A program made the position numbers and the translations under genes. DNA of 64,000 nt, taken from the sequence record NC_070874.1. One strand, written 5' to 3'. Source of the DNA: Escherichia phage vB_EcoP-ZQ2. Of the stretch, positions 2,435 to 64,000 are shown piece by piece (position 1 is the stretch's first letter; every line of letters begins with the position of its first letter). Below the pieces are notes generated by a model, which was not told where the DNA came from, did no database searches, and was given only the letters and a program-made list of their open reading frames with translations.

Positions 2435-3145
2435 ATGCAGAAATTATCGGAAGTATATCGTGGCTTAGCACTAAGTACCTTGAAGGGTACTGGTGCAGTC
2501 ACGGATGACAGATTAGGCATTGAGCCAGACAGTAAGCCAGAAATATTGGCTGCTATTAATGAAGGGTTGGTACGATTGCATAGTCGTTTCCCTCTCCGAA
2601 CTAATAGCTGCATTGTGGAGATGAAAGAAGGTCGTACTGACTACCCTCTTCAATCTCGGTATGCTTACTCCCGGTTTACTAAACCTACTCTTGAGATTCA
2701 ATATCCATATATCATGGATGGGTTCATGAAACCTTTCCAGGATGACGTTATTAAAATCTTAAATGTGTTTGATAACTCTGGGAATCGACGTAGACTGAAC
2801 GACGACTCAGACCCTAATGCAATCTTCACCCCAAGACCTGATACTATTCAATGTATGCGACCTCGACACTTCGAGGCACTTAACGTAACTTATCAAGCTA
2901 AGCACCCAGTACTTACGGGTGATGAAGAACAGGAAGTTGACTTAGCAGACACGCTAATGACAGCACTTCATAACTGGGTGGGTTATCGTTACCACACTGG
3001 TTTGAATACTCCGGAAGCTAATGCTAAGGCAGTAGAGTATCTGCAAACGTATGAAAGCATCTGTGGTGAGGTTGTTGATTACGACCTGGCTAATGGAAGT
3101 ATTTCAATTACCGAAACTAAATTTGAACAACGAGGATGGCGATGA
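2435..3145 (+). CDS. hypothetical virion-associated protein (N4 gp67-like position)
   Basis: 236-aa ORF tightly packed between terminase and tail fiber gene. Confidence 0.45.
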   Translation: MQKLSEVYRGLALSTLKGTGAVTDDRLGIEPDSKPEILAAINEGLVRLHSRFPLRTNSCIVEMKEGRTDYPLQSRYAYSRFTKPTLEIQYPYIMDGFMKPFQDDVIKILNVFDNSGNRRRLNDDSDPNAIFTPRPDTIQCMRPRHFEALNVTYQAKHPVLTGDEEQEVDLADTLMTALHNWVGYRYHTGLNTPEANAKAVEYLQTYESICGEVVDYDLANGSISITETKFEQRGWR

Positions 3146-6100
3146 ACGCACATACCCCCTTTGATGCAAATCAGGATTGGTCTAATCCTTACTGTCAGAA
3201 CAGTTCCAATGATCCTATGGTAGATGCACTACTTGGTAATGCTTACCATGTGGTTCGAACTGTTTACTGTAACTTGGGTAACCTGAAACTTATCTATGAC
3301 TTCCTTAACCAGTATGGAATGGTACTTGGTGTACAGTCTGAAGCAGAACTTAAAGCACTAACAACCAAAGCTAAGTATGCACGTATCTATGGATTCTCTC
3401 GTGCAGGTGACCGTCAGGTAACTGACTACCTGTATGTGGAAGGTGATCGTACGGGTATTATTCCAGACGATCCAAAGGCAACCGGTTCGTGGATTACTGT
3501 TGCTACTTCTGGTTCTAATAGTGGTGGTACTTCCTCTGGGGAAGGTGCTTATATTCCTTGGGTATACGACAATGGTTCTGCTGCTGGTGGGGAAACCACA
3601 ATCAACGTACCAGATGGTACGGTAGGTGTACCTTTTATCATTATTAATGGGGATATGCAGTATGTAGGACGTGGCTTTGAATTTAATGCAGATAGCCTGT
3701 CGGTAACTCTGGCTCAACCTCTGGAAGAAGGTGATGAGGTAGTATTCCTTCTGACTGGAGTTCCTGCTGTACCAGATAATCCTAACGTTAATGACTGGGT
3801 TCAGATTAACTGGTTATATAACAATGGTGCTGCTATAGGTGGTGAGCAGGTTATTGCTATCCCTTATACCTTCCAGTCTGTTCCTGCTGTGTATAAGAAT
3901 GGGCTTCGTTTGTATAAAGGATTAGCTACTGAGTCATATACTGCTGACCCGGATAACCAACGTATACTTCTTACAGAACCACTGGCAACCAATGACCGGC
4001 TAATTGTGCAGATTGGTGGTGAAGCACAGGTACTGGAAACAGCAGACCATACCCTTCAGGAAGTTGCTCGTGCTACTAACGTTAAGGATAGTGAGGTAAT
4101 TCTTAGTACAGATACTACCCAGTTCCTGAATAATAAGAAGGTTATTTATTCTGTTAGTGAGCAGAAAGCATATGGATTACCTGTACTACCAACTAACGTA
4201 TTCATTCAGTCTGTAAGCAATGGCAAGTTAATTTACTCACCTGGATCCATTGAAGTAGACCTAATCCCCGTACCCAATTCTGCAGAGAGTTTGGAACAGG
4301 CACTGTCAGCTGAAAATGGTGCATCGTTGATTGTAGATAAACTCCCGTATGCTGGAGCAGTACCAAGAACCCAGCACGATATAAATTCACAATTTAGTAA
4401 TATTCTTGACTTTCTAGGCGATGGGTATGATGGCACTACGGATGCTGCAGGAGCCTTTATCTCTGCCAACACACTCGTTCCGAAAAGTAGAGAGATTGTT
4501 GTTCCAAGTGGGGTGTATCTTCTCAATAGTGACGTGGATTGTTCCGGTCGCCGTTTTACATTTGAGGAGCCTGTGACATTTACTGGTATTGGTAAGTTCT
4601 ACCGGGCTATTGTCAATAGAATTATGCCGGATGGAACAACTCGGGTTTCTCAGTGGGCCAAACCAGGAACTACCGAATATATGACGGCATCTGCTGTTTT
4701 CGGTGACAATGGGGCTACAGCAACTGGCATTCAGATTGGTGGAGCTGTGCCATACAATGGCACAGATGGTGTCATGATGTTTACCGATGGTAGCTCTGGG
4801 TGGTTAGGTGTTCGTGCATCTAAGTGGCCCCACCCTACGGAAATGGCGATATATCCAAGCTCTAAAGCTGGGTCATGTCAGACAATCTCAGGCAGTAATG
4901 CTGTAAAAAGACTGTCGGGTGCTAGCATTACGGCTGAAGCGATTGGGAAACCAATTTCCATCTATGATTCCCTATATACCATATCGACCATAACAGCAGA
5001 TGGTTTTACTGTTAAGAATATTAATGGAACACCCGTTACTTGGGGGTCAACGGCAACTCACTCATTCATTTTATGCTATTACAATGGTAGTGGTTTGTGC
5101 AGCGTATCTGGTACTACTGTGACACGTATTAGTGGCGACCCATTTGTAATTCCTGACCCGACAGTACCACAAACAATGACTATAAACGGTATTGACTACC
5201 GTGTAGTGTCTTTTACAGACCCTCAACATGTTACCCTTAATTCTGCTCCAGGGGATTCAGCGTTAACGGAATATAAATTCTGGGGCACAGTCAATAGCCT
5301 TAACTCTGCTCTTAGGATTCATCGACTCAATGCTGCTGGGTTTGAGGAAAATATTAGTCTCATTGCTAATAATGCTGGCTATTTTGCATTACACGCCGCA
5401 GCTGGTAACCCAGCCAATGAGCAGTATCCAATCTATATTGGGTCAGGTTGGGAAGATAACGGACAGATGCGTAAGAGTATTATCTCTGCAGGTAATGGAG
5501 ATGTAACTCTTGGTGGGGGTTATGGAAATGGGCCGTTATACGTGCCATATAATCAAACATCTGGCCGCCCGCAAGTCATGGTGGATAACAGTACGGGTAC
5601 AGCCACCATTTCGTCTACTGGCGGACCTACTCCGGATGCATCGTTAGCTATTAAAGCTAAGGGTACAGGTAGGGTTGTGTTTCACTCCGAGGTCGGGGTT
5701 AACGCTGCGATATACCCCTACATAGATAACGTTTATTCATGCGGTCAATCCGGGAATAGGTGGTCACAGATATGGGCATCGAACGCCACCATCCAGACTT
5801 CTGATGGGACGACAAAAACTGCAGTTCAAGCATCCGACTTATCTACAGACTTTATTCTTGGTCTAAACCCTGTTTCTTATAAGAACATTGTCGGGGGAAA
5901 TGTTGTAGAAGAGGTTGAAGATGGCGTAGAAGAAATTGAACGACAAGTGGTAGAAAAAGTTACTTCTTCTGAAGAAGTCCATGAACGCGTTGTTGATGGT
6001 GATGAAGTCTACTACGTTCGCAAGTTTGTTAACAAGGAAGTAGAACGACCAGTATTTCATGATGTTGAGCTGCGTGACGAGCTTGGCAATGTCATTGGTA

Positions 6101-34645: not shown

Positions 34646-34872
34646 TAGTAGCTTTAACGCAGCTAACGAGGCTAGGCCAGTTAACTATTACCACCGGTGC
34701 TTGTACCAGCAAACAGGATTGATAGTCCGATAATAGATAACTGTATTTGAGCATTATAGTCTACTCATACTCACACCGATAGGTATGTTTTCAATAGCTA
34801 GAGTGCCGGACTGTCTCACCGGCATTGTCTTTAGAGTGCAATGCAATCAGGACTATGTTCTCTATTAATGAG

Positions 34873-34946
34873 TACCCACTACTGGATTTGAACCAGTGAC
34901 TTTCCAATTATTAGTTGGTTGCTTTCCCCGTCTAAGCTAAGTGGGC
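34873..34946 (-). tRNA. tRNA, 74 nt, anticodon read as AAU (Ile-type, atypical A34)
   Basis: hand-folded cloverleaf: acceptor GCCCACT/AGTGGGT (one G-U), D-stem GCTT/AAGC, anticodon stem CCAA/TTGG with loop CTAATAA, T-stem ACTGG/CCAGT with loop TTCAAAT, discriminator A. Confidence 0.6.
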
Positions 34947-36031: not shown

Positions 36032-36529
36032 TTATCTCCCATGGCGTAAGGTGTAGTTGTGATTCTTTACCAGGTCTGCTTCTATAGTAGCCCGGTATGC
36101 TATAGCAGCATCTTTGGCTTCGCTATCCCCAAGAACACCAATGTTGAAGCTTTTAGTTCGTAGCTTACCTGTATGCGGATCATTCCAAGCAGCAGTCCAA
36201 TATTCGTTGGTCTTCTTCCATTGTCTATACACACCGGTAGTGCCTGATGTATTGTCACTTCTTTTGCGACGATTGCGACAGTTAATCATATGGGACACTA
36301 GTCTCATATTAATAAGTCGACAATCGGTTGGGATTCCATTGATGTGGTCAACTTCATACCCATCCGGGATTGGTCCATTATAGTATTCCCAAATCCAGTT
36401 GTGCAGAAATACCCTCACCCCATGACGTTTAATACGGATGTACCCATCCTTTGCATTGGCATCATCGGGAGAATGTACTACAGCGAGTTCATGGGCAGGT
36501 TTATTCCAGTATCCTAATGGCTTGCTCAT
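36032..36529 (-). CDS. HNH homing endonuclease (HNH plus AP2-like DNA-binding region)
   Basis: ...YEVDHINGIPTDCRLINMRLVSHMIN...TSGTTGVYRQ... typical free-standing phage HNH. Confidence 0.75.
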   Translation of the reverse strand: MSKPLGYWNKPAHELAVVHSPDDANAKDGYIRIKRHGVRVFLHNWIWEYYNGPIPDGYEVDHINGIPTDCRLINMRLVSHMINCRNRRKRSDNTSGTTGVYRQWKKTNEYWTAAWNDPHTGKLRTKSFNIGVLGDSEAKDAAIAYRATIEADLVKNHNYTLRHGR

Positions 36530-39405: not shown

Positions 39406-41559
39406 TTACTTGCCAGCGAAGCGTTTAGCCACGGTGACCATTACGGTTGCATTCAATTCATCATCTGGTAATGGATTAGCCAGTTTCTTATTGAATGAGT
39501 GGACGGCTTGCTGTACTTGGGCAAAGTCCCAACCACTGTCAACCAATGCCAGTGCGTACTTAATCATTTGATTATTACGATTACCGGTAGCAATACGACT
39601 AGCGAACCAACGCTCCAGATTATCCAACGACTGTACTTCCTTCATCTGGTTCCGGAACTGCTCGTTCTTACTAGTACGAGGAATAAAGTCACGCACGTCC
39701 AACAGATTTGCTTCAAGATTGTAATGATAGGAACCAGTCTCACAGGACATCCATTTCTTGGCTCGTTGGTTAGCAGATTCATCCGTTTCGAACGGTAGCC
39801 AAGACATAACGTTATTCATGAACTCTTTGTATTCCTCGGTGTCGAGGTGTAACTCATAGTTCATTGGAATAATCAGTCGGAATCGGTTCTCTTCATCAGA
39901 ATGACGCTTAGTGGTATAGGTCATGAACTTATATTCCTTCATCAGTTCATGGCACGTATGCAGTGGTACTCCACCATCACAGTCAATAACAATCATGTTA
40001 AATCCTGGAATAACGTTCTCTTCGGAACGATGGCCATTTTTCATGTGATGGTTTACCCAGTGCATACCGGGAGCTTGGGTTAATACATGCAACTGGTCGA
40101 ACGGTACACGTTCACCAATGTAGTCATAAGCAAAGCTATCACTATATGCCACTATCATCTCATTGATGTCAGTCTCTTTCAGAGTTTCCCCACGGAAGAA
40201 CTCAATACCTTCATTGAAGGTTTTCTTAATGATGATGTGCTGTTTGTAACCCCATGCTGTAGCAAGGGTCATCATCTCATTACGGGCTGCATTACCACTC
40301 TTATAGAACGGCAATGACTCCAACAAATCAGCATGAGTCACTTCTTTACCTACAGAGGCAATGTACTTAGCCAGCTTCACATAGGCTTTCTCACGATTGA
40401 GAATACCCTGGAATGCTGCCCCGGATTCCTCTACAAGCAGGATTGCTTGTTTAAGGTGAGACATCTCAATGAATGAACTCTGGTCAACAAATGCCAGTGC
40501 CCCAGCCAGTTTAAGTGCTTTGAAGTAACGGTGTTTTATTTCATTTTTACGGATTTCTTCATGGTCTGACATAGCTGCTGCTTGTTTATCACAGTCAACT
40601 TTATAGGCCATTGCTGCAATGCCTACATCGTCTTCTACAACCATCCTATAACCGAATAAGTTTGGGTCAGCTAAATCATGAAATTTATTTGCCCATTTAC
40701 TAACAGTAATATTGTTATCCGTTTTAATGAGATTTCTGTAAATTTCTTCTGGAGTCATACTCACAAAAGCTTGTTGGTCTACTTGACCAATTGCAAATAA
40801 GCAACGGCGAGCATAACCAGTATCCAGAAAATCATAGAATTGGTCTTCGATTTGACCACCATCTAACAGCTTACTTGGTGTACCAAAAAGTAGCAGATTA
40901 GTAGGAGTCTTACCGTCCAGTTCTTCCCCTCGCTGGCTCTCGGCAGTGTTCTTGGTCAGCTTCTGTTTAACCTTACCCTGGTCATATAATTCCAGGAACA
41001 GAGTTAATACGTCTGTGTTGGCCAACAGGTTTGAACCAATTTCATCAATCTGAAGGTTGATTGAACCACACCCAGCCATTAACAACTTGTGACGTAATTG
41101 TTTAACTGCTGGTGGAGTACCAGAGTCAAACGTAAACGGATATGCCCCAGCACGTTTATATTCTGCTTCAACTTTATCAAACTCATCATTCTGGTCTGTA
41201 CCCTGACGAGCAGCACGTTCGTTGGCAATCTTCCATAGGCGGTCATTTGCAATGACGGGCATGGTGTCTTCCATAAAACGTTTACGGAATCCAGACATAA
41301 ACCCGTCTTCAATGATATTTACTGAGTGACCTTTACCGAAACCAGATGTAGCCAACGCAATAGCGTAGATGTTTACCGGCAGGTCACCACGGTCTTTAGT
41401 TACAATGGTTGCACCCATGCAGGATGCCATTTTAGCCAAGAAGTAGGCTACTTCGACACGGAAAAATCCCCGGTCATTATTCTGGGTTTTATTGCAGAGC
41501 ACATCTACGATTTCTTCAATCGCCGGATGGTGACTGATGCCAGTAAGGTCGATACTCAT
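39406..41559 (-). CDS. putative DNA primase (N4 gp43-like position)
   Basis: 717 aa in replication module between SSB/ATPase and DNA polymerase; functional call by synteny and size. Confidence 0.45.
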   Translation of the reverse strand: MSIDLTGISHHPAIEEIVDVLCNKTQNNDRGFFRVEVAYFLAKMASCMGATIVTKDRGDLPVNIYAIALATSGFGKGHSVNIIEDGFMSGFRKRFMEDTMPVIANDRLWKIANERAARQGTDQNDEFDKVEAEYKRAGAYPFTFDSGTPPAVKQLRHKLLMAGCGSINLQIDEIGSNLLANTDVLTLFLELYDQGKVKQKLTKNTAESQRGEELDGKTPTNLLLFGTPSKLLDGGQIEDQFYDFLDTGYARRCLFAIGQVDQQAFVSMTPEEIYRNLIKTDNNITVSKWANKFHDLADPNLFGYRMVVEDDVGIAAMAYKVDCDKQAAAMSDHEEIRKNEIKHRYFKALKLAGALAFVDQSSFIEMSHLKQAILLVEESGAAFQGILNREKAYVKLAKYIASVGKEVTHADLLESLPFYKSGNAARNEMMTLATAWGYKQHIIIKKTFNEGIEFFRGETLKETDINEMIVAYSDSFAYDYIGERVPFDQLHVLTQAPGMHWVNHHMKNGHRSEENVIPGFNMIVIDCDGGVPLHTCHELMKEYKFMTYTTKRHSDEENRFRLIIPMNYELHLDTEEYKEFMNNVMSWLPFETDESANQRAKKWMSCETGSYHYNLEANLLDVRDFIPRTSKNEQFRNQMKEVQSLDNLERWFASRIATGNRNNQMIKYALALVDSGWDFAQVQQAVHSFNKKLANPLPDDELNATVMVTVAKRFAGK

Positions 41560-42071
41560 TTGATTAATCCTACGCTCTTATTAGTGACGGCATATTCTCC
41601 GAAGTATTTTACGGCAGCTAAGTCATACGCTTTGGCTGCTTCAATTGCTTCCAGGAATACACCTAAATGAATTGATTTACGGTTTACTTTGATTTTGGCT
41701 AAGTAGTTACCCCTGAACTTAGTAACACCCATAAAACCACTGGTATTGTTTTTATTCAGTCCACGGTTAGCACCATTGGTGCTTTTATCCGCTTCTCTTA
41801 GATTGTCTATCCAGTTGTGGTGACGTATGGTGTCTTTATGGTCTATTAAACCAGTAGGCCACATACCGTACACGTACAACCAAGCTAACCTATGAGCAGC
41901 TTCCCGTTTGGAATCAACTGTTATGTAGAGATAACCGTCACTGTTATTGAGCGACCCAGCAACACTACCGACAGGTGTTCGGTTACTGAGGGAGATGCGG
42001 CGAGTAAATATCCCAGTAAGTGGGTCATAATGCAGCAACTCTTTTAGCCGTTGCTGAGTCAGCTTAATCAT
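41556..42071 (-). CDS. HNH homing endonuclease (free-standing)
   Basis: ...HRLAWLYVYGMWPTGLIDHKDTIRHHNWIDNLRE...TSGFMGVTKF...; start set to the ATG forming an ATGA overlap with the upstream stop; stop also forms ATGA overlap with primase start. Confidence 0.7.
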   Translation of the reverse strand: MIKLTQQRLKELLHYDPLTGIFTRRISLSNRTPVGSVAGSLNNSDGYLYITVDSKREAAHRLAWLYVYGMWPTGLIDHKDTIRHHNWIDNLREADKSTNGANRGLNKNNTSGFMGVTKFRGNYLAKIKVNRKSIHLGVFLEAIEAAKAYDLAAVKYFGEYAVTNKSVGLIK

Positions 42072-43048
42072 GATGGAAAATATCTCTCTCTTTGTTTGCA
42101 AATGGACGCGACAGGGCAGTATAGACAACGCTTAACCTGCCCCTCCACGACCTTGATAGCACCCTTGCCACCTTTTTCAGCCATGAAGATACGAGCAGAT
42201 GCCATATCGTCAAAGTTTTTAGTACTTCTGGCTCCAGGTACATCTACCTTAGAAGCATCAGAGAAGTATTTGAACTGTGGTTCTGTTCGCCACAACTCCT
42301 CGTCAGTACATTCAGGAATTTCCTCTTCAGGTGCATTCCAATACTTCTCAATGAGGTGAATCTTCTCTTCTACCCAACGTTCAGTCTTATCGACAGACAG
42401 CAACGGAATATCCTTATGCATAATACGATTAGCAGGATAGTTCGGATTGCTATTAGCCATATGCTTCATGAAGTCAGTGAAGATGTAGTTAATACGGATT
42501 ACATCCTCGGTAATGATGTCGTTGTGAATCCAACGGTACAAGCTGCCTTGCATCTTGTGTTCATCATCACGGGAACCAGCAACCCAGGAATAGGTTGAGG
42601 TGGACTTAAAGTCTTGCAACAGACCCTCTGTTACGATGTCGAACTTACCACCGATAGTCCAACCCTTAACTACCCTGGTTCCACGCTGTTCAATGTAGAT
42701 TGGGATAAGGTCAGGGTTAGCATCAAAGTCTGCTTTGGTTGGGTTAATGACTACTGCATCAATTACTCGCTGGGAATAACCTAGCTTCTTCAATGCAGTC
42801 TTATGACCCAGCTTCCAGGCTTTCTCGATAGAATCATGTAAACCAGTACCCATTGATGTGGAGACAAAATCCATAACATCAATTGACTGGTCACTGAGGT
42901 CTACACGATGTTTCATGACGATTTGCTTAATAGGCTTAAGCAATGTGGTAACAGACAGGTACTTAGGATTGTCTACGTAATCATACTCATCATGTAGTAG
43001 CCATACAGCCAGAGCCAGTGAGACATCATGATTGTTGGTTATCTTCAT
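42068..43048 (-). CDS. PD-(D/E)xK-family nuclease with C-terminal Cys cluster (Cas4/RecB-like exonuclease)
   Basis: 326 aa; C-terminal ...RCLYCPVASICKQR... cysteine cluster; position next to DNA polymerase. Confidence 0.5.
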   Translation of the reverse strand: MKITNNHDVSLALAVWLLHDEYDYVDNPKYLSVTTLLKPIKQIVMKHRVDLSDQSIDVMDFVSTSMGTGLHDSIEKAWKLGHKTALKKLGYSQRVIDAVVINPTKADFDANPDLIPIYIEQRGTRVVKGWTIGGKFDIVTEGLLQDFKSTSTYSWVAGSRDDEHKMQGSLYRWIHNDIITEDVIRINYIFTDFMKHMANSNPNYPANRIMHKDIPLLSVDKTERWVEEKIHLIEKYWNAPEEEIPECTDEELWRTEPQFKYFSDASKVDVPGARSTKNFDDMASARIFMAEKGGKGAIKVVEGQVKRCLYCPVASICKQRERYFPS

Positions 43049-62060: not shown

Positions 62061-62135
62061 TATCAATTTCCCCATAAGTAAATAGCAGGATTAGTATACA
62101 TGATGAATAAAAATAAAAACCCCCCAAAAGGAGGG

Positions 62136-62334: not shown

Positions 62335-62370
62335 CAAAAAATAAGCCTCACTCCCGAAGGAATGAGGCTA
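62335..62370 (-). terminator. rho-independent terminator (minus strand) after the RNA polymerase 3' exon
   Basis: minus strand AGCCTCATTCC-TTCG-GGAGTGAGGCT followed by TATTTTTT. Confidence 0.6.
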
Positions 62371-62375
62371 GTTTA

Positions 62376-62438
62376 TTAACTCAACGCATAGTCTGTTTCA
62401 AGAATGTCCTGCCAGAGGCTGTCATCCAGCTTACCAGC
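62376..62438 (-). CDS. putative 3' exon of split T7-like RNA polymerase (N4 RNAP II large subunit-like) gene; boundary approximate
   Basis: encodes ...AGKLDDSLWQDILETDYALS-stop, matching the T7 RNAP C-terminus ...LPAKGNLNLRDILESDFAFA as recalled from memory. Confidence 0.45.
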   Translation of the reverse strand, partial: AGKLDDSLWQDILETDYALS

Positions 62439-63532
62439 AGAGAACTCTTGCCCCAGTACCTGAGACAGGATGAAGCCCAGCAAGTCACTCTTAGCAATGT
62501 CAGATAGAATCTGATTGTACTGACGACGCAGGTCATTACCGTAGTTAGGATGACATCTAAAACCATTAGTTAAACGAGTCGTTAGCTCGCCCTTACCTTC
62601 CATGATTAACATGGAAGCCATACGTAGCATCTGCTTCTTTACGAGCAAGCATTGCCTCCTCAAGTGTGTCATACGTACCCAGACCAATCTGTTTACGATT
62701 GACTGTGATGTGTGCCTGGAATCTACCAGAAGGCAATATTCTTACACCATTCACTTTGCTTGATGTATTACGTGATAAACCCATATTCATCTGGTTCTGT
62801 CTACTGGTTACATTTCTCAGATTAGACCAACGGTTGTCGTTTCTAATGTGATTGATGTGATCCACCTGGTTAGGTGTTTCCCCTGTTTCCATTATCCAGA
62901 TTATTCGATGCAGTAAGTACTCTTTACGACCCAGACTAACAGATAAATAGCCTTCTTTGTGAGGATACCCCACAATTGTTCCGGCTAATCCACTAGCAGA
63001 GTCGAAACGATGAGTTACTAGCCCACTTTCTCTGTCATACCTTAAAACCTTCTTCAAAGATTCTCGGGTAATGGTATCCAAGTCTTTTATCAGGTTCTTA
63101 CAGGTAGGGCATAGGTGGCCTATTGGACTCTTTTTAGCATCATAGAAGTTGCAAACAAACTCATTAGAGCATTGCTTACAACTACAGATAGCTGTGTACT
63201 TACCAGTTTTACGTAATATTTGGGAGTTATCTAACATATGGATTCCTTAGTAATTTTGCATACAATTTCAGATTGTATCCTAACCAAGGAAGTAAGTCTC
63301 CGGTTTTCACCGGAGTATCGGACTATATCATCACCCACTAATCAGTGGGGCAAGGCGCTTGGGTGGTCACTTGACTCACCTACTCTACTCACATACGAAA
63401 TGTTTTCGATAGTCTCTGAACCTTCCCTCATGGAGGGCTTGGCTGCTGATTGGCATATCCATAGGACTTAGCTTTCCAGCAATTCACCTTGTTTTCGACA
63501 CGGATTACTCCGTGAAGGATCATTTATGTTTA
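62439..63532 (-). mobile_element. group I intron with HNH homing endonuclease ORF, inserted in the RNA polymerase gene (boundaries approximate)
   Basis: on minus strand in order: P2-like GNRA hairpin (63499..63514), P element GAATTGCTGGAAAGC (63471..63486), Q CCAATCAGCAGCC (63441..63453), R GGTTCAGAGACTA (63407..63422), P8 hairpin (63334..63349), S GATATAGTCC (63320..63329), P9 hairpin (63298..63315), then HNH ORF. Confidence 0.7.
62593..63237 (-). CDS. intron-encoded HNH homing endonuclease with N-terminal CxxC zinc-finger-like motifs
   Basis: ...YLSVSLGRKEYLLHRIIWIMETGETPNQVDHINHIRNDNRWSNLRNVTSRQNQMN...; CSCKQC and CPTC at N-terminus. Confidence 0.75.
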   Translation of the reverse strand: MLDNSQILRKTGKYTAICSCKQCSNEFVCNFYDAKKSPIGHLCPTCKNLIKDLDTITRESLKKVLRYDRESGLVTHRFDSASGLAGTIVGYPHKEGYLSVSLGRKEYLLHRIIWIMETGETPNQVDHINHIRNDNRWSNLRNVTSRQNQMNMGLSRNTSSKVNGVRILPSGRFQAHITVNRKQIGLGTYDTLEEAMLARKEADATYGFHVNHGR

Positions 63533-64000
63533 ATCATGTACAGTCATTACAGGGAATGGTTTCTTAGGCAGAGTGTCAATCATATCTGCTACTACCTTAC
63601 GGTCTACCAATGCAATGGTATTCGGGTCAAGGTAGTCCAGAATAGACAGTGACAGGAACCCAGACTTCTCATAATGACTCCAAATTTCCATAGTCATTTC
63701 CTGGTTCCCTGCGATAGCAGGATAATTGCTTGGCCCGATATCACATAGTTCACGTACATAGGCAACCAGTTTAGGGTCGAAGTTACAACGACGCAGCATC
63801 TCACGTACCACCATCCCATCAATAGAGTGAGTGATGTTAGCAGAGAGCATACGGGTCTTTTCTTCAGTACCCTGAACCATACGAGTGATGTCAAATGGTT
63901 TACCTAAGAAGTTAACAGTCTGTACTTCAGGAACCATGACCTTAATGACAGCGTGGAAGTTGTCAGGAAGTACCCATACGTAACGGTTGGCATCCGGATT
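63530..64000 (-). CDS. T7-like single-subunit RNA polymerase (N4 RNAP II large subunit-like), 5' exon, truncated by window edge
   Basis: frame open to window end; ...YVWVLPDNFHAV... and ...ITHSIDGMVVRE... resemble T7 RNAP ...HWVTPDGFPVW... and HSQDGSHLR/HDSFG regions; in-frame stop at 63530 is at the proposed 5' splice region. Confidence 0.55.
   Translation of the reverse strand, partial: NPDANRYVWVLPDNFHAVIKVMVPEVQTVNFLGKPFDITRMVQGTEEKTRMLSANITHSIDGMVVREMLRRCNFDPKLVAYVRELCDIGPSNYPAIAGNQEMTMEIWSHYEKSGFLSLSILDYLDPNTIALVDRKVVADMIDTLPKKPFPVMTVHD

Follow-up and report, generated by a model that had tools for sequence, protein, structure and literature searches.

Near one end of the 64,000-nucleotide (nt) stretch of Escherichia phage vB_EcoP-ZQ2 (sequence record NC_070874.1) that we analyzed, referred to below as the window, the gene for a T7-like RNA polymerase, RNAP2, is interrupted on the minus strand by an insert bearing an open reading frame (ORF) for an HNH endonuclease. 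The RNAP2 ORF enters the window at 64000 on the minus strand and is closed by a TAA at 63532..63530, directly after ...PFPVMTVHD, and the C-terminal part of the gene lies beyond the insert; the features of the locus are collected in Table 1. We consider it very probable that the insert is a group I intron of the IA type, mobile and capable of self-splicing, and that it interrupts RNAP2 one base after the Asp codon of VHD/CF, the block assigned here to polymerase motif C (slashes mark splice sites or joins throughout).

Table 1. Features of the interrupted RNAP2 locus (window coordinates)
Feature	Coordinates	Strand	Remarks
RNAP2 exon 1	63532..64000	-	3' part only; gene runs past window end; collinear with PBM-2, IME11 and Bp4
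Group I intron	62564..63531	-	968 nt; starts AAACAUAAAUGAUCC, ends UUUAACUAAUG, terminal G at 62564; placed by alignment to intronless alleles
P1	63518..63535	-	exon GAUU (63535..63532) and intron A+1 pair with guide UGAUC (63522..63518); Rfam P1
P2 hairpin	63499..63514	-	CACGGA-GUAA-UCCGUG; 4 of 6 pairs changed on both sides across homologues
P3 5' strand (63491..63485), P4-P5, hairpin and return strands	63441..63491	-	includes P and Q elements
P element	63485..63471	-	GAATTGCTGGAAAGC
Q element	63453..63441	-	CCAATCAGCAGCC
P6/P6a hairpin and R element	63410..63443	-	P7 invariant in 8 of 8 sequences
R element	63422..63410	-	GGTTCAGAGACTA; carries P7 5' strand GACUA
P7.1 (63408..63396) and P7.2 (63380..63362)	63362..63408	-	between P7 and P3'
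P3 3' strand (63357..63351), P8 (63349..63334), S element and P9 (63315..63298)	63298..63357	-	P8 CCCACT-GATT-AGTGGG; P9 CTCCGG-TGAAAA-CCGGAG
S element	63329..63320	-	GATATAGTCC; carries P7 3' strand UAGUC
P9.1-like stem-loop	63243..63291	-	UUCCUUGG pairs with CUAAGGAA; minimum free energy -15 kcal/mol
HNH homing endonuclease ORF	62593..63237	-	214 amino acids (aa); after P9, between P9.1 and P9.2
Intron 3' tail	62564..62592	-	P9.2-like CGAG-CUAACGA-CUCG (62589..62575), then UUUAACUAAUG to terminal G62564
RNAP2 exon 2	62376..62563	-	GT TTT AGA TGT CAT = (C)FRCHPNYGND...DILETDYALS, then stop
Hairpin and T-run, intrinsic-terminator-like	62336..62369	-	directly after RNAP2 stop; AGCCTCA-TTCCTTCGGGAG-TGAGGCT TATTTTTT; GC-rich; read from sequence

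The flanks of the insert matched about 55 records of N4-like phages, mostly Gamaleyavirus (G7C-like), at 86-93% identity, and all but one of these alignments fell into two pieces that skip the insert; the closest relatives of the window belong to Gamaleyavirus. By homology, the interrupted gene is RNAP2, the counterpart of N4 gp16 and the T7-like large subunit of RNAPII: the intronless RNAP2 of PBM-2 matches PDB 6DT7 chain B (N4 RNAP2) end to end (E 7e-191), and a profile of the spliced C-terminal part matches the same chain with an E value of 8e-78, in agreement with a preliminary description of this DNA that had placed the insert in the T7-like RNA polymerase gene of an N4-like phage. An alignment to intronless relatives, also proposed there, shows a contiguous gene that continues through the segment downstream of the insert and defines the insertion site; in PBM-2, IME11 and Bp4 this gene encodes a protein of 405 aa (...PVMTVHDCFRCHPNYGND...DYALS).

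The exon join can be fixed to the base. Exon 1 ends in CCT GTA ATG ACT GTA CAT GAT T, which encodes PVMTVHD and supplies the first base of a Cys codon, and only one join, that of T63532 at the end of exon 1 to G62563 at the start of exon 2, restores the frame (HD-C-FRCH). The resulting ...TVHD-C-FRCHPNYGN... is identical in about 50 intronless Gamaleyavirus relatives, and the spliced frame has the same length and sequence context as the intronless genes of PBM-2, IME11 and Bp4. The predicted spliced junction is ...CATGATT/GTTTTAGATG and the predicted junction peptide, which contains TVHDCFR, is ...PFPVMTVHDCFR; at the DNA level the insertion site reads ...GTACATGATTGCTTCCGTTGCCA... in intronless PBM-2 and G7C and ...GTACATGATTGTTTTAGATGTCA... 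in the spliced window sequence.

The same frame-restoring join also places a U·G pair at the 5' splice site, ends the intron in G, and allows a 4-bp P10. In P1, U63532 forms the U·G pair; AAAU (63525..63522), the bases that directly precede the guide G, and GUUU of exon 2 (62563..62560) are able to pair as P10, and the 3' end of the intron reads ...AAUG/GUUUU. In the related intron of Pseudomonas phage ZC08, P10 pairs GUU with AAC. The preliminary description had found no convincing P1 or P10 and had regarded the splice sites as beyond placement by hand, a view that no longer holds now that P1, P10 and the terminal G have been found and both sites placed. Its intron, drawn at 62439-63532, is present, but the low coordinate falls 125 nt inside exon 2 and the true 3' end is 62564.

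Two further features tie the intron to its exons. The third base of the Asp codon covaries with the guide base in 12 of 12 carriers (GAU-U with GAUC, GAC-U with GGUC), and in all 14 of the carriers compared the last exon U and the first two intron bases form a UAA or UGA stop codon across the 5' splice site, in both of the insertion registers described below (the window copy lies at 63532..63530 on the minus strand), so that ribosomes on unspliced RNA would halt exactly at P1. The first 14 nt of exon 2 (62550..62563) show five to six synonymous differences from intronless Gamaleyavirus alleles, the opening codons being TGT TTT AGA TGT CAT in the window versus TGC TTC CGT TGC CAY, and the last 30-40 nt of exon 1 show just 0-2 changes. 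This synonymous cluster fits co-conversion, selection for P10 or endonuclease resistance, three explanations that are not separable, and it is an indirect hint that the intronless allele may be cleaved site specifically.

We take the Asp of VHD to be the metal-binding residue of motif C, Asp812 of T7 RNAP; if so, the intron lies one base past the catalytic codon, a typical homing site. In a weak pairwise BLASTP match (E ~0.03) to a T7 RNAP C-terminal sequence entered by hand, VHDCF lies opposite IHDSF and DILETDYALS, at the C terminus, opposite DILESDFAFA. A PDB profile search made to anchor VHD on Asp812 reached N4 RNAP2 alone, and gp16 has been described as holding polymerase motifs A, B and C (PMC4496689).

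The group I model RF00028 of Rfam matches 63541..63298 on the minus strand over its full length (model positions 1-253 of 253) with 91.8 bits (E 3.1e-22; gathering score, 50), covers the 5' 244 nt, and is the sole group I intron match in an Rfam scan of the whole window; a full-length match with such a score is far beyond chance, and the observation is thus real. The covariance model search had been suggested in the preliminary description, and the P, Q, R and S elements and the P2, P8 and P9 hairpins quoted there were all found on the minus strand where it had placed them. Its identification of a group I intron is borne out by the RF00028 match, by covariation over eight homologues and by the U·G pair, the terminal G and P10.

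The covariation set comprised these eight homologous sequences, from which RNAalifold recovered P1, P2, P3, P4, P5, P6, P7.2, P8 and P9. Three long-range pairs that it also proposed (columns 13-15 with columns 263-265) were spurious, standing where the P7 pseudoknot belongs, and were removed, and the P7 pseudoknot was added by hand. With P7 included, paired cells amounted to 96.8%, compared with 32-44% when the partners were slid by 1-3 columns; two-sided changes were found in 27 of 56 pairs, versus 5-9 in the slid controls, and none of 500 shuffles matched the observed pairing and covariation values. Changes on both sides affect three pairs of P3 and six of the seven pairs in both P7.2 and P9, and P4 is invariant.

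The RNA is also more conserved than its surroundings. Between the window and Shigella phage Moonfish, which carries the same element, identity reaches 98.3% in the 5' part of the noncoding ribozyme, where 5 of 294 nt differ and 3 of the differences are P9 changes that preserve pairing, and it extends to 29 of 29 positions in the intron 3' tail. The synonymous divergence (dS) of the embedded ORF, by contrast, is 0.33, and identity in exon 1 is no higher than 82%; the intron RNA is thus under selection and more strongly constrained than neutral sites. The greater likeness of the two introns than of their host genes would fit horizontal movement.

The P7.1/P7.2 region constitutes a 49-nt insertion relative to the Rfam consensus. 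We take the presence of P7.1 and P7.2 between P7 and P3' to be the hallmark of subgroup IA in the scheme of Michel and Westhof, and by this criterion the intron is provisionally assigned to IA, the assignment being made at the level of IA and not of IA1 or IA2. Without its ORF the ribozyme measures about 320 nt. The P9.1 3' strand, CUAAGGAA, contains the Shine-Dalgarno sequence AAGGA of the HNH ORF, and a comparable hairpin adjoins the ORF start in ZC08, in Pseudoalteromonas phage pYD6-A, and at the loci L012 and L011; P9.1 probably masks the ribosome-binding site of the ORF. The P9.2 position is kept in ZC08, Erwinia phage MIF8, pYD6-A and L012, with an unrelated stem sequence.

The HNH ORF had been placed downstream of P9 in the preliminary description, and at 63237..62593 it matches Pfam HNH_3 (E 1.1e-15) and belongs to PHROG 99, "HNH endonuclease" (E 8e-58). 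Its product is laid out as an N-terminal CxC..C / CxxC cysteine cluster, the HNH_3 domain, and a C-terminal AP2-like DNA-binding domain. The reading frame runs to full length and keeps its HNH motif intact, and its ratio of nonsynonymous to synonymous divergence relative to Moonfish (dN/dS) is 0.085. Homologues occupy the same intron position in ZC08, pYD6-A, MIF8 and L012. No relative of the HNH part with a solved structure was found in PDB by sequence, and plant AP2/ERF domains match the tail weakly. The window contains two other ORFs of this kind on the minus strand: one of 190 aa with a TTG start at 41556..42128 (HNH_3; 32% identity to the intron ORF), which overlaps the ends of a 326-aa ORF lacking a Pfam match and of a 717-aa primase-like ORF (PriCT_1), and one of 165 aa at 36032..36529 (HNH_3 and AP2), which has no group I signal nearby. 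The former looks free-standing, given that no group I signal was found near it at E values of <=0.1.

The intron occurs sporadically among close relatives, yet distant hosts carry it too. In Moonfish the element is 94% identical over its whole length; the GenBank record of this phage gives three coding sequences (RNAP2 subunit A, HNH endonuclease and "RNA polymerase"), and its genome announcement mentions neither an intron nor HNH nor RNA polymerase. Cores 71-79% identical to that of the window follow [ILV]HD of RNAP2 in ZC08 (Zicotriavirus), MIF8 (Efbeekayvirus) and pYD6-A (Matsuvirus) and are themselves followed by HNH ORFs with 43-50% aa identity to the window ORF. RF00028 scores approximately 82-94 bits at this site in Moonfish, ZC08, MIF8 and pYD6-A, and an intron is annotated in none of these four phages in GenBank. 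A search with the DNA pattern CATGAY plus the invariant P3/P4 block found RNAP2 ending in [ILV]HD at the junction in four IMG/VR contig matches (two of them near identical) and six metagenome contigs; two further metagenome matches lay in unrelated contexts. An HNH protein scan of IMG/VR yielded one distant relative only, without an intron. About 1 in 50 Gamaleyavirus-like records carries the intron, as do at least four other Schitoviridae lineages and about 10 metagenomic contigs.

The motif C site is used in two registers that lie one codon apart. In MIF8 (L006, ~2986/3970) and pYD6-A (L007, ~2187/3165), the insertion lies 3 nt downstream, at GAT GCG T/...G/TC (HD-A-F), compared with GAY T/GT TTY in the window type, and P1 pairs GCGU with GCGC. 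The window-type splice position was rejected for these two phages, as it gives a non-G intron end or a frameshift, and only the downstream site keeps the frame intact while providing both the U·G pair and the terminal G. At least three intron sites are now apparent in RNAP2: motif B (the published N4G2 and Sz33 introns), the ANxxHSxDG block (pYD6-A) and motif C. The RNAP2 gene of pYD6-A (JF974296) is in three pieces, all annotated as "hypothetical protein," with two Rfam group I matches at 1593-1840 and 2166-2422; the ORF-less intron (74 bits) splits ...GVSLAAKLIG / NVIHSIDGYMVRE, and the motif C intron with its HNH ORF scores 81.7 bits. The closest ribozyme sequences outside RNAP2 are those of FelixO1-like DNA polymerase introns (~72% identity over ~200 nt of the core), which differ from the window intron in host gene and phage family. 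Such core matches fall within the DNA polymerase genes of myophages of Salmonella and E. coli; some are annotated solely as "hypothetical protein" or not at all, and they probably represent group I introns that share the ribozyme lineage of the window intron and have gone unannotated.

The intron resembles several well-known elements. The T4 nrdD (sunY), td and nrdB introns belong to subgroup IA2, encode endonucleases in a peripheral loop, and have the extra P7.1/P7.2; as in the window intron, the sunY ORF lies 3' of P9 and a stop codon is reached shortly past the 5' splice site, and in td the ribosome-binding site of the I-TevI ORF is masked by RNA structure. The T4 introns reside in nucleotide metabolism genes and encode GIY-YIG enzymes, in contrast to the RNA polymerase host and HNH-AP2 enzyme of the window, and no ribozyme sequence similarity to T4 was detectable by blastn. 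I-HmuI, I-BasI and I-TwoI, from introns in polymerase and reductase genes of Bacillus and Staphylococcus phages, are nicking enzymes that combine HNH with separate DNA-binding modules; the window ORF, compared with these, has the layout of PHROG 99 (cysteine cluster, HNH_3 and AP2).

The preliminary description implied that an intron in this gene was new, but closely related findings have already been published. Babenko and coworkers demonstrated by reverse transcription-PCR and a junction peptide that an insert of about 800 bp in g16 of the G7C-like phages N4G2 and Sz33 is spliced (bioRxiv 10.1101/542787). That intron shares with ours the gene, the phage genus, and an insert of ~800-970 bp with a homing endonuclease ORF. 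It lies in QAVMTAFYGSEAK, about 190 codons upstream of the motif C intron and outside the window, at a site that is uninterrupted in 49 of 49 phage collection records, and it had no Rfam match (bioRxiv 10.1101/542787), in contrast to the 91.8 bits of the window intron. For ZC08, a homing endonuclease ("HE") inserted within RNAP2 was reported, and the ribozyme was not recognized (PMC5418858). A 2015 review noted that gp16 is "split into two genes" in two N4-like genomes (PMC4496689), and the N4-like Vibrio phage pVa5 has a group I intron with an HNH gene in thymidylate synthase (PMC5746245). In the literature searched, we found no description of the motif C intron as an intron. The nearest functional parallel is gp210 of PhiPA3, an HNH enzyme that nicks the intronless allele of a competitor and confers a competitive advantage (Birkholz et al., Science 2024, PMC11620839). 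Like the window ORF, it is encoded in a putative group I intron of a phage RNA polymerase gene beside conserved aspartates, but its host gene encodes a multisubunit virion RNA polymerase subunit of a jumbo phage rather than a T7-like enzyme, and its activity and advantage were shown experimentally, whereas the window enzyme is known from sequence alone.

The data suggest the following course of events. RNAP2 would be transcribed early, as in N4, and ribosomes on the precursor would stop at the UAA across the 5' splice site. The RNA would fold into the P1-P9 core, and guanosine would attack after U63532, held as a U·G pair by the guide UGAUC; P10 (GUUU/AAAU) and terminal G62564 would then align exon 2, and ligation would give the mRNA for the full 405-aa RNAP2. 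The HNH-AP2 enzyme, its ribosome-binding site presumably masked by P9.1, can be expected to nick or cut, near the insertion site, the RNAP2 alleles of coinfecting relatives that lack the intron, and repair of the cut allele would copy the intron in (homing).

Several points weigh against this interpretation. We infer splicing and endonuclease activity from sequence; P10 is short, with 4 bp in the window and 3 bp in ZC08, and is ambiguous in MIF8; the assignment to motif C draws on the weak T7 alignment (E ~0.03, with a hand-entered sequence) and on the statement about gp16 motifs in PMC4496689; and the AP2 match of the intron ORF (E 1.4e-4) falls below the Pfam curated cutoff. The remaining points bear on a split gene without splicing, in which an HNH cassette divides RNAP2 into two polypeptides that assemble and the ribozyme is a relic. 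The GenBank annotation of Moonfish as three coding sequences is in keeping with such an arrangement, for which we take Aeh1 nrdA to be one precedent. The window and Moonfish, moreover, have in-frame ATGs 14-23 codons upstream of exon 2, in a stretch that overlaps the 3' end of the HNH ORF, and a separately translated C-terminal fragment is possible in these two phages. What makes the split gene a serious rival is that a similar-looking insert in g39, which encodes the DNA polymerase of phage 10Gb, is unspliced and yields two polypeptides (bioRxiv 10.1101/542787). We nevertheless judge it improbable, and reject it, on three grounds. The ribozyme has remained 98-100% conserved while neutral sites diverged (dS 0.33); covariation preserves all helices from lineage to lineage, P1 with its exon strand among them; and in four of six carriers (ZC08, L012, MIF8 and pYD6-A) the frame leading into exon 2 is closed by a stop 3-11 codons ahead of it and offers no start codon from there on, so that the conserved N terminus of exon 2, (C/A)F.xH.N, is expressible by splicing only. 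This last argument taken by itself does not exclude a split gene for the window and Moonfish, given their upstream ATGs. A break at this point would also separate the catalytic Asp from the next residue.

Less probable still is a decaying intron, whose ribozyme, endonuclease or both are now inactive and whose RNAP2 is a pseudogene or is otherwise rescued. The homing cycle, as generally understood, predicts degeneration after fixation, but here the ORF is full length with its HNH motif intact and under the purifying constraint indicated by the dN/dS of 0.085, the core helices are all intact, and the differences between the window and Moonfish that fall within helices all keep pairing. RNAPII is, furthermore, needed for N4 middle transcription (PMC4496689), so an unspliceable insert in RNAP2 should be lethal. 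A functional mobile intron spliced from the RNAP2 transcript accounts best for these observations.

Some neighboring features may be recorded. A second terminator-like hairpin lies near 62095-62135, after the next small ORF. In some intronless relatives an extra segment of about 125 bp, missing from the window and most relatives, lies between the RNAP2 stop and the next gene (IME11 3141-3281, AN24P2 and CU10EC); in IME11 it is annotated with a 46-aa hypothetical ORF, and AN24P2 and CU10EC align as three pieces with a span of ~857 nt. The single tRNA gene of the window lies at 34872..34946 on the minus strand (Rfam tRNA, 62 bits); ARAGORN identifies it as tRNA-Ile and gives its anticodon as AAT, which is unusual.

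Group I introns carrying HNH genes are common in phages, and their presence in polymerase genes is already well known. The motif C intron represents no new kind of biology; it is an unannotated member of a well-known kind of element and, by its insertion site, arguably defines a small new family. The target of this family of mobile introns, in at least five Schitoviridae lineages, is the codon for the catalytic Asp of a T7-like RNA polymerase. For annotation, the essential gene RNAP2 of Moonfish, ZC08, MIF8 and pYD6-A, deposited as two to three unrelated coding sequences or as "hypothetical proteins," is read here as spliced. The family offers a compact ribozyme together with a candidate site-specific HNH nickase with a target of ~20-30 bp, and in mixed infections between therapeutic N4-like coliphages the outcome could be tilted by the endonuclease. 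If splicing takes place as predicted, the middle-gene polymerase would be made only once its RNA has spliced itself, and these phages would provide a natural system for the study of splicing-dependent polymerase expression and of intron homing among N4-like phages. We would advance only tentatively, as a combined proposal that is on balance unlikely to hold in full, that independent group I introns have landed repeatedly in the catalytic motifs of RNAP2, that the HNH enzyme serves as a weapon of interference, and that splicing times the switch from early to middle transcription. Were it true, the motif C HNH enzyme would act on coinfecting intronless N4-like phages, as was shown for PhiPA3 gp210, and the need to splice, together with the stop codon that spans the splice site, would determine when early transcription gives way to middle transcription.

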